Source: Ophelia neglecta (Eukaryota). Taken from it: DNA of 64,000 nucleotides. Every line of letters begins with the position of its first letter. Positions within the stretch are counted from its first letter, which is position 1. Where the stretch lies: positions 8,308,001 through 8,372,000 of the forward strand of contig OZ260667.1 of assembly GCA_965285935.1 (NCBI GenBank), in the 5' to 3' direction. The translations under genes and the position numbers were made by a program. This document shows, one piece after another, positions 386-23,692 of this stretch. The notes below the pieces were generated by a model, which saw nothing but the letters and a program-made list of their open reading frames with translations, was not told where the DNA came from and did no database searches.

Positions 386-1951
386 CACTGGGAGCTCCCA
401 TGGGTAGCAGGTTCCAGGGGGACATGAACCCTGGTCGGGGGAAATGACAGAAGGTCCACGCCTGAACTCTGACCTTGACCCAATCAGTCAGAGGGTCATG
501 GAATGACCTTGTCCAGGCAGAGTCTAAAAATAATAAAAAAATATAATGTGTCAATAAGTAAATTATAATTGGCTAGTTTCTCTCTGATGAATTTGGACTG
601 ATTTAATAGATTTATTTTAATTAGCTTATTAGTAGGGTATATTATGTTGATTACCAGGTGGTCTGTCCTATGTTACGGTTCTATTCTCACTCTCCCCCCC
701 CCCCCCCCATTCTTCCTTGAGTTTATAAAAACTACCCATGCATCATAAGCTAAACGACAGCCAAGTCATCTAGCTCTTAATATTTACAATTTGCTAAATT
801 GCATTAGTGAAATATTTACAACTAATGTCTGAATATGAATATGAATAATTAAATTCCGAAAGAGGGTAATGTGAGATTCATTTGTCTAAACTGATAACTC
901 CAGTGTTAGGTAAAAAGGCTAAAAGCATTTGGACTTTGATGGAAATGAAACTTGACTAACTACATAGCCATTTCCTGTTATTAAACCTACCCACTTACCG
1001 AGGTTCATGAAGCCTGAACCGCAGACAGTAGTATTGATGTATGTATGTACATGTGACTGATTGTACATGTAGTACACCTCACATGGTGAATGATCTAGAT
1101 TCTGTCCTAGAGGCAAGGCCTGGAACATCATATCTCGGTTGATCCCTTCTCCTGAAATACCACCACTCATTTTATAATCTCCTCACGGGATACATATTAG
1201 TGTAATCATGGTAAAAAGTGTCTAGGTTTGCACTTTTCAAAAAATGACACTTCACATGTTTTTAAATTCTGTGTGGAGATATGTTGGCCCTATGTTTAAT
1301 TGCAAATGTGTGATTAGAGTTTAAATTTTGTGACTGATTTCTGATTTTCACGATTACAAGGCCATAAAATATAAAAAAAATGAACTTAGGTTAGTTCTGC
1401 ACATGCCCATAGCTTCTGCCTCAAATGTATTTATTGTACACATGTTATGTTTGAGCAAAATGCCTTACTTTTAAAATCATTGAGGTCTAATTTGGATAAA
1501 TTGACAAAATAACAAAATGATCTTGAAGAATTTACTTAATTTTTCATTGGATATTTTATTGATTCCATAATTTAAACTTGATATTACCGGGGTAGGTTAT
1601 CTTTATGATTATTTTAAAGAGGCAAAATAATATCACCTTAATCAGAGAGTTCTGTGTGTGTGACTTAATGGGACCTTTCCCCCCTCCCTCTTAGATTTGA
1701 AATTTTTGTTTTTTTTTGCCAAATACAAGAGTGCTGATCTGAGAACCATATATGTAAAAAAGACACAGGCCCAATTTTTCCTGTCCCTGGCCTAATTTGG
1801 TTAACAGGTAGATGCTCACCTGGCTTGACAAGAACTCTAACAAACACTGGGACATCCGGTAGTCCGTGTGCGAGGGACAGGAAGGGGGCAGAGAAGTTGA
1901 AGTACAGCGGGGTCCAATGGCTATCATACTCTGGCTCCTCAATCGATGGAG
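386..1951 (-). CDS. Gene 1 downstream exons including an FN3-like segment (1951-1820, 1151-999, 523-386)
   Basis: Three phase 1-1 exons; the last reads WVKVRVQAWTFCH...GFMSPW...GAPS, like the FN3 C-terminal motif VRV.A....G.S.W....AP. Confidence 0.55.
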
Positions 1952-22900: not shown

Positions 22901-23692
22901 GCTGAATACATCAGCAGGGCCGGTGGCTGGAGGCTGTCTTATCTTATAATTTGGATTAAAATAAGTCTTAAAATGCTGAATTGGTCTTAACTTGCTAATT
23001 GGGGATGCTAAAAACTGAAGTTTGACTTAAATCTAGTGTCATTCTGGTTTTAAACTTAATCCTGGTCAATAGTGGCTCAAAATCTACCCCCTGAATGTAG
23101 GAATACTTTCCGGAACCGGGCCTATGTGATAATACTAATGCGGCTGCTCATAAGAAACATGTATATGTATATGCAGATAAGGGTGCCAATGCTGACCGAT
23201 TTCGTACGGTACCTAAGCAATTATTTAGAGTATAATAAACGCTGGGCTATAAGCATGTAAATTATAATTATTTTATAGTAGACTATATCAAAGTATTAGA
23301 GCACTAGACCTATTAAACTTGTACCTAACCCTTCCCCTTACCTTGAAATCAACCCTCAGTCCTCACCCCTGCCTTGCTGACGCTTTTTTGTGTCCTGTCA
23401 CTCTGAAATACACATGACTTCCGGGTCCGCATAGCTTCCGCACTTCACTTATCAAAAGCCGAAATTATTGTGGGCCGAATAAGACCATTTTCTGAATATT
23501 TCTTTTCCGCTAGTCAGGAGGATTGATAAAATGAAAGACCACTCTATACCCCCTTGGGACTTGTTTCAATATTTGACAAAATGTGTTTCCTTTTTTTTGA
23601 TGATAGTATGCACTTACACACCCATATAATAAAAAAAACTTACCTAAGAAGACTAAAACCAATAGTGTTATCCACCAGTTCATTTCGCCCAT
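386..23692 (-). CDS. Gene 1: multi-exon mosaic lectin protein (signal peptide - S/T stalk - FA58C - B-lectin-like - FA58C - F-type-lectin-like - mucin repeat - F-type-lectin-like - FN3-like); no stop reached, 3' end probably beyond the left edge
   Basis: Phase-compatible exons in transcription order: 23692-23644 (MGEMNWWITLLVLVFL), 22863-22798, 22014-22003, 21266-21240 (tentative), 17295-17242, 13937-13899, 12820-12483, 11971-11821, 11021-10891, 10377-10191, 8850-8651, 8161-8021, 7552-7405, 6659-6459, 5404-5174, 4628-4017, 3326-3138, 2741-2502 (GC donor), 1951-1820, 1151-999, 523-386. The joined frame is open for about 1,146 codons. Confidence 0.8.
2502..3326 (-). CDS. Gene 1 F-type lectin-like domain 2 (exons 3326-3138, 2741-2502)
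   Basis: LTDGDPVTCV...PVVTIDMGQDVLVSQIRIT...C...VVCDVVQYGRYVSLRL...IEICEVDTF. Confidence 0.65.
4017..4628 (-). CDS. Gene 1 Thr/Ser-rich mucin-like exon
   Basis: Inside ORF 3997-4677; about 11 degenerate 33-nt (11-aa) units like TNGDTTDQPMS; acceptor ttgcag and donor gtaagt. Confidence 0.8.
4130..4500 (-). repeat. Coding 33-bp minisatellite (mucin repeats)
   Basis: Plus-strand units such as ggttggtcagtagtaccaccattagtgctttct recur with a period of about 33 bp. Confidence 0.85.
5174..6659 (-). CDS. Gene 1 F-type lectin (FTP)-like domain 1 (exons 6659-6459, 5404-5174)
   Basis: NLAGGRPAYHS...CLDT...VYIDLEEPRWVTEVAI...C...C....GRFIYI...LDPCEIQIYG matches the FTP scaffold (NLA..KPA.QS; W.VDL; GRYV.I; L.LCEV.V). 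Confidence 0.65.
5436..5850. mobile_element. MITE with about 25-bp TIR and TA TSD
   Basis: TA|TGATCAACCACGCGGTAACCCGGGG ... CCCCGGGTTACCGCGTGGTGGATCA|TA. Confidence 0.8.
7405..8850 (-). CDS. Gene 1 FA58C/discoidin domain 2 (exons 8850-8651, 8161-8021, 7552-7405)
   Basis: CSSLL...IFNASS...GGWCALDSDPNPWFMVTLPSAQIVSGVKIQ...YVESLTVSY...W...EAQYIRIKP...CMRLDLVSC is typical FA58C. Confidence 0.85.
10191..11021 (-). CDS. Gene 1 bulb-type (B) lectin-like domain (exons 11021-10891, 10377-10191)
   Basis: LSGDQVLCSPDGKYYAAIEDGRFTI...VNLTQEGHLKF...IWD...RFSDEGQLILYSESGNPIWS resembles the B-lectin repeat signature (L.S..G.Y; L..DGNLVLY...G..IW.S). Confidence 0.6.
11821..12820 (-). CDS. Gene 1 FA58C/discoidin domain 1 (exons 12820-12483, 11971-11821)
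   Basis: CNESGL...YSS...TTWSPEGSDTTPYLEILFEQNLILTTLTVQG...VFAVNTNSYTSNTLHLDPPIYARTLVV...LNIKLKGC follows the discoidin pattern (W.P...YL.I...I.TQG; F..N.....L.PPI.AR; L.GC). Confidence 0.8.
15181..16560 (+). mobile_element. Non-autonomous Helentron-associated (HINE/DINE-1-like) element with internal tandem array
   Basis: Subterminal IR ATGCCTCCGCC (15186-15196) / GGCGGAGGCAT (16481-16491); (TCCG)n(ACCG)n microsatellite 15230-15322; about 452-bp units starting near 15421, 15874 and 16325 (partial); 3' hairpin; T-rich flanks. Confidence 0.8.
17505..18420. repeat. Pyrimidine-rich minisatellite (about 33-bp unit, higher-order repeats) in a gene 1 intron
   Basis: Units like ctcccagacccctctcctcttctcactgcccccctttctcc; extreme C/T skew on the plus strand. 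Confidence 0.9.
18871..19090. mobile_element. MITE with 23-bp imperfect TIR
   Basis: GGCTTTGTGTTAACAGCGAAAGC / GCTTTCGCTTTTAACACAAAGCC. Confidence 0.65.
19173..19416. mobile_element. MITE with GATACG subterminal repeats and a telomere-like core
   Basis: GGCATACTGGAAAA / TTTTCCAGTATGCC; ATGTAGC in both flanks; core GGGTAAGGGGTAGGGTTA and CCTAACC. Confidence 0.7.
19841..20374. mobile_element. Foldback/MITE with about 110-bp TIRs and a nested 34-bp inverted repeat
   Basis: 19841-19950 is a near-perfect reverse complement of 20264-20374; 19949-19982 pairs with 20075-20108. Confidence 0.8.
21555..21797. mobile_element. MITE, with older related copies at about 9770-9985 and 22918-23122
   Basis: TIR GGCCCCGGTTTCTGGAAG / CTTCCAGAAACCGGGCC; shared internal motifs TAAAATCAAG.TTAAAGTGCTTAA and ATCCTGGTCA. 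Confidence 0.7.
22097..22266. repeat. Tandem duplication of 81 bp
   Basis: agtgagaagact...cagatactata occurs twice, near-identical. Confidence 0.85.
23644..23692 (-). CDS. Gene 1 first coding exon, signal peptide
   Basis: MGEMNWWITLLVLVFL hydrophobic core ending TTAG|gtaagt (phase 1); joins 22863-22798 (AHFRPSAEQGTTETSLSLNTDT). Confidence 0.7.

Follow-up and report, generated by a model that had tools for sequence, protein, structure and literature searches.

Introduction

Several groups of described proteins resemble parts of the locus reported here. In the mosaic F-type-lectin proteins of invertebrates, which are large and either extracellular or membrane-bound, F-type domains occur together with discoidin (FA58C), Ser/Thr/Pro-rich and other modules, and some are without the basic triad; the available part of PMC5712786 gives as examples Drosophila furrowed and CG9095, sea urchin SpCRL and the amphioxus and hemichordate expansions. 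Factors V and VIII, neuropilin-1 and -2 and lactadherin contain paired discoidins with non-glycan ligands. The GNA-related lectins, such as the fish lily-type lectins and the plant G-type/S-domain receptor kinases, are characterized by a three-fold repeat, Gly-centred turns and a terminal Trp, and rotifers, tardigrades, arthropods and ray-finned fish are given as animal examples for this fold in the part of PMC11186620 available. Finally, the receptor tyrosine phosphatases and kinases with FN3 repeats (R3 RPTPs; PMC5336234, in part) are built of phase-1-flanked modules.

Here, a window of 64,000 nucleotides of Ophelia neglecta DNA (contig OZ260667.1, positions 8,308,001 to 8,372,000) was analyzed, in which a minus-strand gene combines modules that resemble these. 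Unlike the mosaic F-type proteins, it has no CCP or CTL module and both of its F-type-like modules are triad-less; its bulb-type module does not figure among the F-type partners given in the accessible part of PMC5712786. This module stands between the two discoidins, unlike the arrangement in factors V/VIII, neuropilin-1/2 and lactadherin, whose A, CUB, MAM and EGF domains were not detected here. In contrast to the GNA-related lectins, its three QxDxNxVxY sites are degenerate and it is found in an animal mosaic context, flanked by phase-1 introns. The domain architecture looks unreported while its kind is known: it was not found described in the literature searched, which was mainly open-access and covered the survey of F-type architectures by Bishnoi et al. 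as cited in PMC5712786.

We propose, with a probability of about 0.55, that the locus represents the 5' portion of a single gene encoding a large, heavily glycosylated adhesion or receptor ectodomain, in which a mucin stalk carries pseudo-lectin modules.

Exon structure of the gene

On the minus strand, a spliced open frame of 20 exons encodes 1,148 amino acids with no stop; an alternative version with 21 exons (1,174 aa) is equally free of stops. The frame begins at an ATG at 23692, its last donor lies after 386, and it is still open at the left window edge, where positions 1..385 are the start of the next intron and the gene goes on past the window. Reading through beyond the last exon meets a stop after two codons, and the best acceptor before the edge scores at most 3.1. 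Splice sites are GT-AG in 18 of the 19 introns and GC-AG in one (2501). The locus is a genuine animal gene, of which the front portion is seen here, and the earlier claim of one mosaic extracellular protein with its C terminus outside the window is supported by this open spliced frame with canonical splice sites.

Exons were scored with six control regions (55.5 kb) as background. Three candidates in these regions scored at least 20; two of them (30.3 and 22.9) were the antisense shadow of exon 6659-6459 and the third reached 20.7. Eighteen exons are firm, two are moderate (14992-14948 and 13937-13899) and one is unsupported (2300-2223). Exon 1 (23644..23692), with the ATG and the hydrophobic core of the signal peptide (aa 1-16), was recovered by a held-out ATG-to-donor scan (hydrophobicity 3.36, donor 9.4). 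Exon 2 (22798..22863), which holds the end of the signal and a Ser/Thr-rich leader, scored 28.1 when held out (acceptor 13.5, donor 11.5), and exon 3 (17242..17295), a Ser/Thr/Pro-rich leader, likewise held out, 28.9; both are phase 1-1. The same phase is found in the two short, moderate exons, exon 4 (14948..14992), with a held-out 22.1 against 20.7 for the best non-shadow control, and exon 5 (13899..13937), with 19.0 despite its membership of the training set (acceptor 8.1, donor 8.4, coding 2.5). The sequence-only reading had assembled 21 phase-compatible exons and gave no list of them; its open frame, end points and strand hold. A possible 21st exon in the present set (2223..2300), which scored -0.2 for acceptor, 2.6 for donor and -5.8 for coding when held out, can be omitted with the frame intact.

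Other candidates were rejected. At 18276, candidates that were in phase and scored 23-25 lie in or beside a purine-rich tandem repeat, the one at 9694 runs into a stop after six codons, and those at 3659/3656 are mismatched in phase. The candidate at 2319, which has an acceptor of 3.3 and meets a stop after 11 codons, would be a possible, unsupported end of a secreted form.

Because 15 of the 19 introns are in phase 1, those at every domain boundary included, phase compatibility is weak evidence for one protein, and the four phase-0 introns all lie within domains. Phase 1-1 modules can be freely skipped or split, so that frame compatibility is no test of linkage, and the joins between modules are unproven since neither transcript nor orthologue was found. 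The modules could accordingly be spread over more than one transcription unit, or the exons at the 5' end could belong elsewhere, no single protein then carrying all modules. Such a division would fit the four short 5' exons scattered across about 10 kb of repeat-rich DNA, the AT-rich introns with their many acceptor-like sites leading into stops, and a weak ATG exon candidate at 3721. We nevertheless regard it as improbable. From exon 5 onward, the introns measure only 396-1,340 nt and therefore leave little room for a gene boundary; CpG depletion is uninterrupted over 1-14 kb, and the F-type duplicates share the position of a phase-1 intron. Furthermore, exon 1 is the one strong signal exon and no strong internal start exon was seen: a signal-peptide-like start exon was detected within a single one of the 19 introns and had a weak score of 2.17, compared with 3.36 in exon 1, in a scan that failed to recover one of two neighbour genes. 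In the single gene that we favour, exon shuffling of phase 1-1 modules would have produced a large extracellular protein of an invertebrate animal.

Discoidin and bulb-type modules

The module order proposed earlier, signal, FA58C, bulb-type-like, FA58C, F-type-like, mucin and F-type-like, was retained except for a final FN3 module. FA58C domain 1 (11821..12820; exons 12820-12483 and 11971-11821; aa 85-247) gave 32.4 bits with a profile of three Ciona FA58C repeats, and domain 2 (7405..8850; exons 8850-8651, 8161-8021 and 7552-7405; aa 354-516) a weaker 9.1 bits, the best of 500 shuffles (285 of which yielded any domain) reaching 4.4. In Pfam, one exon of domain 1 (F5_F8_type_C, E=0.034) and the last exon of domain 2 (E=0.033) stayed below the cut-off. 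In the PDB, a profile of the two C-terminal discoidin exons matched factor V (E=4.9e-6), and all 36 matches of the discoidin profile were FA58C domains of factor V/VIII-type, neuropilin or lactadherin, with no lectin among them. Domain 1 is 25% identical to P0009 over 157 aa. Exon 12820 alone retrieved only Unc-13 from the PDB, with E of at least 0.87, and in phages a discoidin exon found nothing beyond chance matches. Both putative FA58C domains are thus supported by a sequence-profile match across the domain.

As in factors V/VIII, neuropilin-1/2 and lactadherin, the paired discoidins show terminal cysteines and a matching C-terminal strand pattern; an additional Cys pair in domain 2 may correspond to that of DDR/AEBP1-type discoidins. 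By analogy with the discoidins of these coagulation factors, lactadherin and neuropilin, the ligands would most likely be protein, matrix or anionic lipid. The factor Va C2 domain binds phospholipid and has no basic triad (PMC5712786, available part). Carbohydrate is bound by the Dictyostelium discoidins and by bacterial modules of this family. The PDB is skewed to vertebrate discoidins.

Between the two discoidins, the bulb-type lectin-like module (10191..11021; exons 11021-10891 and 10377-10191; aa 248-353) probably has a beta-prism II fold, with support below curated cut-offs. Its second exon retrieved bulb-type chains in 10 of 11 PDB matches (best E=0.0022), and a model of this exon gave bulb-type structures at Foldseek ranks 1-17, but with E of at least 0.065 and TM of at most 0.41 for a 62-aa fragment model of pLDDT 63. 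When both exons were combined in a profile, the signal weakened: bulb-type chains made up 6 of 10 matches, with a best E=0.044. The first exon alone gave no bulb-type match, neither exon matched in Pfam, and a VIA-align search showed no bulb-type chain among the matches listed (Z of at most 3.6). The three-fold repeat, Gly-centred turns and terminal Trp are all present in the module. When it was examined for the bulb-type mannose motif QxDxNxVxY (PMC11186620, in part), no nine-residue window held even two of the five residues, and none of the three degenerate sites has the binding motif. Site 3 retains conservative substitutes (S-x-E-x-Q-x-I-x-Y), which makes a changed sugar site possible there.

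If the bulb-type assignment holds, a fold studied mostly in plants, fungi and bacteria would be an ordinary intron-flanked module of an animal mosaic protein, and the set of shuffled domains would be wider. A bacterial donor of the module did not emerge: the genome scan yielded one locus out of 86 pattern matches, where the match spans 17 residues and does not fall in any ORF that looks annotated, and the plasmids gave two chance matches.

F-type-like modules and mucin-like stalk

F-type-lectin-like domains 1 (5174..6659; exons 6659-6459 and 5404-5174; aa 517-660; four cysteines) and 2 (2502..3326; exons 3326-3138 and 2741-2502, the latter with the GC donor; aa 865-1007) are duplicates of each other (z=7.0, 0 of 500 shuffles) and each is interrupted by a phase-1 intron at the corresponding position. 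FBP32 was the sole match of their joint profile (E=0.033). For domain 2, the top PDB match was the F-type lectin 1k12, weakly (E=0.41), and Pfam F5_F8_type_C_2 stayed below the cut-off (E=0.0024). In the Atlas, a domain 1 exon matched F5/8C and DDR DS-like clusters at 0.90, and an F-type exon matched unnamed clusters at 0.95-0.96, one of them mostly Mollusca. A profile of the N-half gave no match, the AlphaFold fragment model had a pLDDT of 41, and comparison of the F-type with the discoidin half profiles gave a probability of 0.4%. For the F-type jelly-roll fold, which is marked by conserved cysteines and by Gly-Arg and Cys-Glu strands, the support is therefore below curated cut-offs.

The fucose motif of F-type lectins, HX24RXDX4(R/K) (PMC5712786, available part), is absent from both modules with the spacing relaxed to HX(22-28)RX[DE]X4[RK]; triad-less F-type domains are known from CG9095 and oyster bindin isoforms (same source). 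At the cation motif h2DGx, module 1 reads LTDSD and module 2 LTDGD, in which the DGD cation-site core is retained and the residues preceding DGx are atypical.

The two F-type-like modules are separated by an exon (4017..4628; aa 661-864) with one Cys pair on each side of a 33-bp unit repeated 10.2 times (4145-4480, Tandem Repeats Finder), in which Ser or Thr occupies 49 of 130 residues. This Ser/Thr-rich tandem repeat is a mucin-like domain, and it is probably O-glycosylated. The protein would thus present a head of discoidin, bulb-type, discoidin and F-type modules atop an O-glycosylated stalk of about 130 residues, with the second F-type fold and further beta-sandwich modules beneath.

An adhesion or receptor protein is more likely than a multi-sugar sensor because the lectin-shaped modules have lost the usual sugar-gripping residues. 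As pseudo-lectins, they appear to keep their fold cores, their cysteines and probably a calcium site; the residues that grip mannose or fucose are gone, and sugar binding itself was presumably lost with them. The multi-specificity glycan sensor put forward in the sequence-only reading, here understood as a pattern-recognition protein whose modules would bind different sugars through non-canonical sites, finds no binding motif in any of the three bulb-type or two F-type sites, discoidin matches in the PDB that are not lectins, and a CpG profile opposite to that of the duplicated neighbours. It could draw on four or five modules from folds that include lectins, on the conservative changes at bulb-type site 3, on the CTL-SRCR genes within the same window, and on the frequent co-occurrence of FA58C and F-type domains in invertebrate immune lectins (PMC5712786, available part); all considered, we judge it improbable. 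Domain names alone overstate lectin function here, where every testable sugar site is degenerate.

Relatives and C-terminal module

Queries for protein homologues were single exons or two-exon alignments and hence weak. Word-index protein searches gave no relative, although exon 12820 had 138 candidates, the F-type profile 65 and a neighbour IPT exon 48, and no orthologue emerged from these single-exon or two-exon queries. A full HMMER scan (1.84 billion) returned eight matches, none of them an orthologue and seven of them unrelated repeat proteins; the only one with Pfam F5/8C comes from a cluster that carries a mucin-5AC-like annotation in Ciona.

The C-terminal module (386..1951; exons 1951-1820, 1151-999 and 523-386; aa 1008-1148) has firm exons (coding 22-32, donors 9.6-10.2) and an unproven fold. 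By eye, its aromatic residues have an FN3-like spacing, and it shares phase-1-flanked modules with the R3 RPTPs (PMC5336234, in part). Unlike these, it contains a 50-residue Cys-paired insert, and no transmembrane or catalytic domain of the protein is visible in the window; the intron code, 1:1:1:1, is absent from the codes listed in the available part of PMC5336234. According to the same source, strand B of an FN3 domain carries a Trp and strand C a Tyr; in a by-eye alignment, exon 1951-1820 has Phe at each of the two presumed positions. Pfam fn3 was not found on the three last exons (queries of 43-50 aa), PDB searches with two of them gave chance matches only, the last exon reached at best 0.75 in the Atlas, and a two-sequence bacterial FN3 profile had no match; with these short-exon or two-sequence queries, the FN3-like segment claimed earlier is left without support. 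A plasmid search for FN3 seeds, which returned mostly GLUG-type surface proteins and none listed as FN3, was set aside, and the DNA past the last exon had no plasmid match.

An Ala-Pro-Ser linker closes the last exon ahead of a phase-1 intron, a pattern found between tandem FN3 repeats. This, together with the frame still open at the window edge, argues against a secreted mucus, cuticle or matrix protein devoid of membrane anchor, whose modules would cross-link or bind lipid and whose mucin repeat would hold water. The absence of a transmembrane segment from the 1,148 aa speaks for such a protein (after residue 30, no 19-residue Kyte-Doolittle window exceeds 1.47, against 2.44 and 2.87 for the transmembrane segments of the neighbours), as does the mucin-5AC-like Ciona cluster; FN3 is unproven here and also occurs in secreted proteins. 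The mucin part, with about 130 aa, is short, and the Ciona match is confined to the domain level (25% identity); we hold the secreted form to be rather unlikely. We lean towards a membrane anchor beyond the window for the proposed ectodomain, which would most likely function in adhesion or in signalling at cell contacts; that the tail beyond the window is a kinase or phosphatase, as the sequence-only reading had suggested as a possibility, is conceivable and somewhat doubtful. That the bulb-type fold serves, with discoidin and F-type folds, as a shufflable phase 1-1 module in the ectodomain of an animal receptor kinase or phosphatase is unlikely; if true, it would be an independent animal parallel to the plant G-type/S-domain receptor kinases, with self or non-self ligands bound through remodelled sites. 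Novel domain combinations are common in invertebrate genomes, so that as long as neither a ligand nor a membrane or catalytic tail is in evidence, the gene is a curiosity rather than a new system.

Genomic neighbourhood and CpG profile

A larger carbohydrate-recognition locus shared with the CTL-SRCR-IPT cluster had been suggested, and this could not be upheld: beyond proximity, no sequence similarity was found between the gene and these neighbours, and the gap of about 17 kb between them includes a LINE. The duplicated neighbours have CTL domains that read QPK and YPK, whereas sugar-binding CTLs have EPN or QPD. Their CpG profile is also opposite: the observed/expected ratio is 0.75-0.84 in the cluster and 0.33 in the present gene, where it stays low throughout 1-14 kb (p=1.2e-6 when 14 one-kb blocks are compared with 24 from the neighbours, the blocks not being independent). 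In coral, low CpG marks germline-methylated, less plastic genes (PMC4378018, in part). As an indirect proxy, the CpG depletion observed here suggests stable expression. Directly upstream of exon 1 (23.7-26.5 kb), the ratio is 0.87.

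Gene model and exon support

The window is AT-rich animal DNA with spliceosomal introns (38.8% GC); it was read directly over 1-36,000 and 40,001-64,000, and by scripts only over 36,001-40,000. On the minus strand, 20 exons running from 23692 to 386 were joined into 1,148 codons without a stop. Introns were GT-AG in 18 of 19 cases and GC-AG in one (2501), this GC donor being the only in-frame phase-1 donor past the second F-type-like module. In the first 18-exon draft, exons had a mean GC content of 47% versus 37% for introns.

Splice and coding scores were derived from the same exons as those scored, so that the values for the core exons are circular. 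When held out, exons 17295-17242, 22863-22798 and 14992-14948 scored 28.9, 28.1 and 22.1, respectively, and the summed score of candidate 2300-2223 was below 0. Six control regions (55.5 kb) yielded three candidates of at least 20, two of which were a real exon's antisense shadow; the third scored 20.7. On comparing held-out and control scores, 18 exons are firm, two are moderately supported and the 21st is unsupported. The gene proposed by the sequence-only reading is real and most of its module order is right; the FN3 and receptor assignments are unproven. Two in-phase candidates at 18276 (25.3 and 23.7) were dropped because a purine-rich tandem repeat overlaps or adjoins them. The intronic repeats at 15232-18250 comprise (CCGA)23, a 452-bp tandem and a 134-bp purine-rich tandem.

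The modules had been assigned to a single protein on the grounds of phase compatibility. As 15 of the 19 introns, including those at every domain boundary, are in phase 1 (the four phase-0 introns are all intradomain), this is poor evidence. From exon 5 on, introns measure 396-1,340 nt, and leaving out exon 2300 gives one of 550 nt. When ATG exons with a hydrophobic core were sought, exon 1 (3.36) was recovered, as was the first exon of one neighbouring gene out of two; inside the model introns, the scan gave a candidate in 1 of 19 only, at 3721, which was weak (2.17) and would be a point in favour of modules belonging to split genes. CpG depletion is continuous across 1-14 kb. Owing to the short introns, the single weak internal start and the unbroken depletion, all modules very probably form one gene, and a split is quite improbable. 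Past the last exon, read-through meets a stop after two codons, and no acceptor above 3.1 was found from there to the window edge; the gene therefore extends beyond the window, as had been proposed for its C terminus.

Discoidin, bulb-type and F-type-like modules

Both discoidin (FA58C) domains (aa 85-247 and 354-516 of the 20-exon model, minus strand) gave Pfam scores below cut-off (E=0.034 and 0.033) because they are divided among exons. A profile built from three of the five FA58C repeats of one Ciona protein, the two weakest being omitted, scored 32.4 bits on domain 1, a value that is not independent since this protein was found with the domain-1 exon, and 9.1 bits on domain 2; among 500 locally shuffled models, 285 gave any domain, the best at 4.4 bits. 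With a profile of the two C-terminal discoidin exons, factor V was matched in the PDB at E=4.9e-6, and 36/36 matches were factor V/VIII-type, neuropilin or lactadherin chains. The two domains resemble each other weakly (z=2.6, 8/500 shuffles). Domain 2 (7405-8850, minus strand) has a second Cys pair at the Trp-Cys and Cys-Met-Arg positions, presumably recalling collagen-binding discoidins of the DDR/AEBP1 type. Factor V/VIII, neuropilin and lactadherin discoidins have lipid or protein ligands, and for the factor Va C2 domain phospholipid binding is reported in PMC5712786.

Between these domains (aa 248-353, minus strand), the second exon of the bulb-type lectin-like module matched bulb-type lectins in 10 of 11 PDB hits (best E=0.0022, in one of ten PDB searches). 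When a 62-aa model (pLDDT 63) was submitted to Foldseek, bulb-type structures took ranks 1-17, with E of at least 0.065, TM of at most 0.41 and a score into which sequence also enters. Pfam gave no match on the bulb-type exons, the first exon by itself had no bulb-type match and no bulb-type chain was among those listed by VIA-align. A bulb-type fold is nonetheless probable. The mannose motif QxDxNxVxY (PMC11186620, in part) was not found in the module, every window having fewer than two of the five motif residues; on visual inspection, its sites have the residues I-D-R-T-H, T-E-H-K-I and S-E-Q-I-Y, with conservative substitutes in the last of the three. Since its flanking introns are in phase 1, its exon GC (0.50 and 0.42) is ordinary for this gene and no credible relative turned up among the bacterial and archaeal genomes scanned, the module looks like a long resident rather than a recent import.

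The two F-type-like modules (aa 517-660 and 865-1007, minus strand) are duplicates of each other (z=7.0, 0/500 shuffles), sharing a phase-1 intron at the matching place and four aligned Cys each. Their F-type matches were weak: the top PDB entries, 1k12 (E=0.41) and FBP32 (E=0.033, sole match), are both F-type lectins, Pfam F5_F8_type_C_2 gave E=0.0024 and Atlas returned F5/8C and DDR DS-like clusters at 0.90. A profile of the F-type N-half had no match, and the fragment model reached a pLDDT of 41 only. A galactose-binding-like jelly roll is likely; a strict F-type assignment is less certain. The fucose motif HX24RXDX4(R/K), as given in part of PMC5712786, was found in neither module, even with relaxed spacing; the cation-site core is DSD in module 1 and DGD in module 2. 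The same passages describe F-type domains without the triad in CG9095 and oyster bindins, for which fucose binding was deemed unlikely.

Stalk, C-terminal module and possible function

The mucin contains a 33-bp unit repeated 10.2 times, with Ser or Thr at 49/130 residues and a Cys pair on either side. Support for the last three exons is firm; by eye, they show FN3-like strands, a 50-residue Cys-paired insert and a terminal Ala-Pro-Ser linker. Every search, all underpowered, returned no FN3 match for them, and the presumed positions of the hallmark Trp and Tyr (PMC5336234, in part) are both Phe, so that the FN3-like end proposed earlier has about an even chance of being correct.

The gene encodes a mosaic of phase 1-1 modules that carries a signal peptide, and every testable sugar site in it is degenerate. 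The lectin-like folds had suggested a multi-specificity glycan sensor; with both the mannose and fucose motifs absent, this reading did not hold and a true multi-glycan sensor is unlikely. We favour, at a probability of roughly 0.55, an adhesion or contact-signalling protein. The four globular modules would form a head, lifted by a glycosylated stalk, which may contact protein, matrix or lipid ligands, and this binding would serve adhesion or contact signalling. A secreted mucus or matrix protein is a weaker candidate. In its favour, no 19-residue window past residue 30 of the 1,148-aa model had a hydropathy above 1.47 (the neighbours' transmembrane segments reach 2.44 and 2.87); against it, the gene continues outside the window.

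Protein searches with its exons, all low-power, found no orthologue, and the literature search no report of this module architecture. FA58C and F-type domains combined with S/T/P regions and membrane anchors are described in part of PMC5712786, and bulb-type domains in several animal groups in part of PMC11186620. What is new here is that such a mosaic includes a bulb-type module.

Neighbourhood and CpG content

Two tandem CTL-SRCR-IPT-TM paralogues (40635-50178 and 52590-59788) lie on the same minus strand, their exons being 33-63% identical. Pfam recognized SRCR (E=5e-17 and 1e-13), CTL and TIG falling below cut-off; one IPT exon had no relative in the database searched. At the position of the CTL motif EPN/QPD, they carry QPK and YPK. 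Broken copies, also on the minus strand, comprise a relic IPT exon interrupted by a frame change and a stop (35523-35704) and CTL exons with in-frame stops (62960-63583), suggesting birth-and-death turnover of the family.

The larger carbohydrate-recognition locus envisaged by the sequence-only reading retains only the common strand and window. No sequence similarity was found between the gene model and the paralogues, about 17 kb separate them, and a LINE lies between (reverse transcriptase ORF 28125-29522, minus strand; Pfam RVT_1 E=1.8e-15). The CpG observed/expected ratio rises from 0.33 at 1-14 kb to 0.59 at 14-24 kb and to 0.75 and 0.84 in the two neighbours (p=1.2e-6 for 14 versus 24 blocks, which are non-independent). 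Apparently stable and present as a single copy, the gene seems to sit beside a receptor cluster in turnover without belonging to it. The sharp step, from 0.33 at 1-14000 to about 0.75-0.87 at 24000-64000, is a usual feature of mosaic gene-body methylation, and together with the domain set such methylation suggests an invertebrate, probably a marine one. Coral genes with low CpG are methylated and less plastic (PMC4378018, in part). At 31305-31688 (minus strand), a 128-codon open frame without a Pfam match, whose second half is acidic and protein-like, possibly derives from a mobile element.
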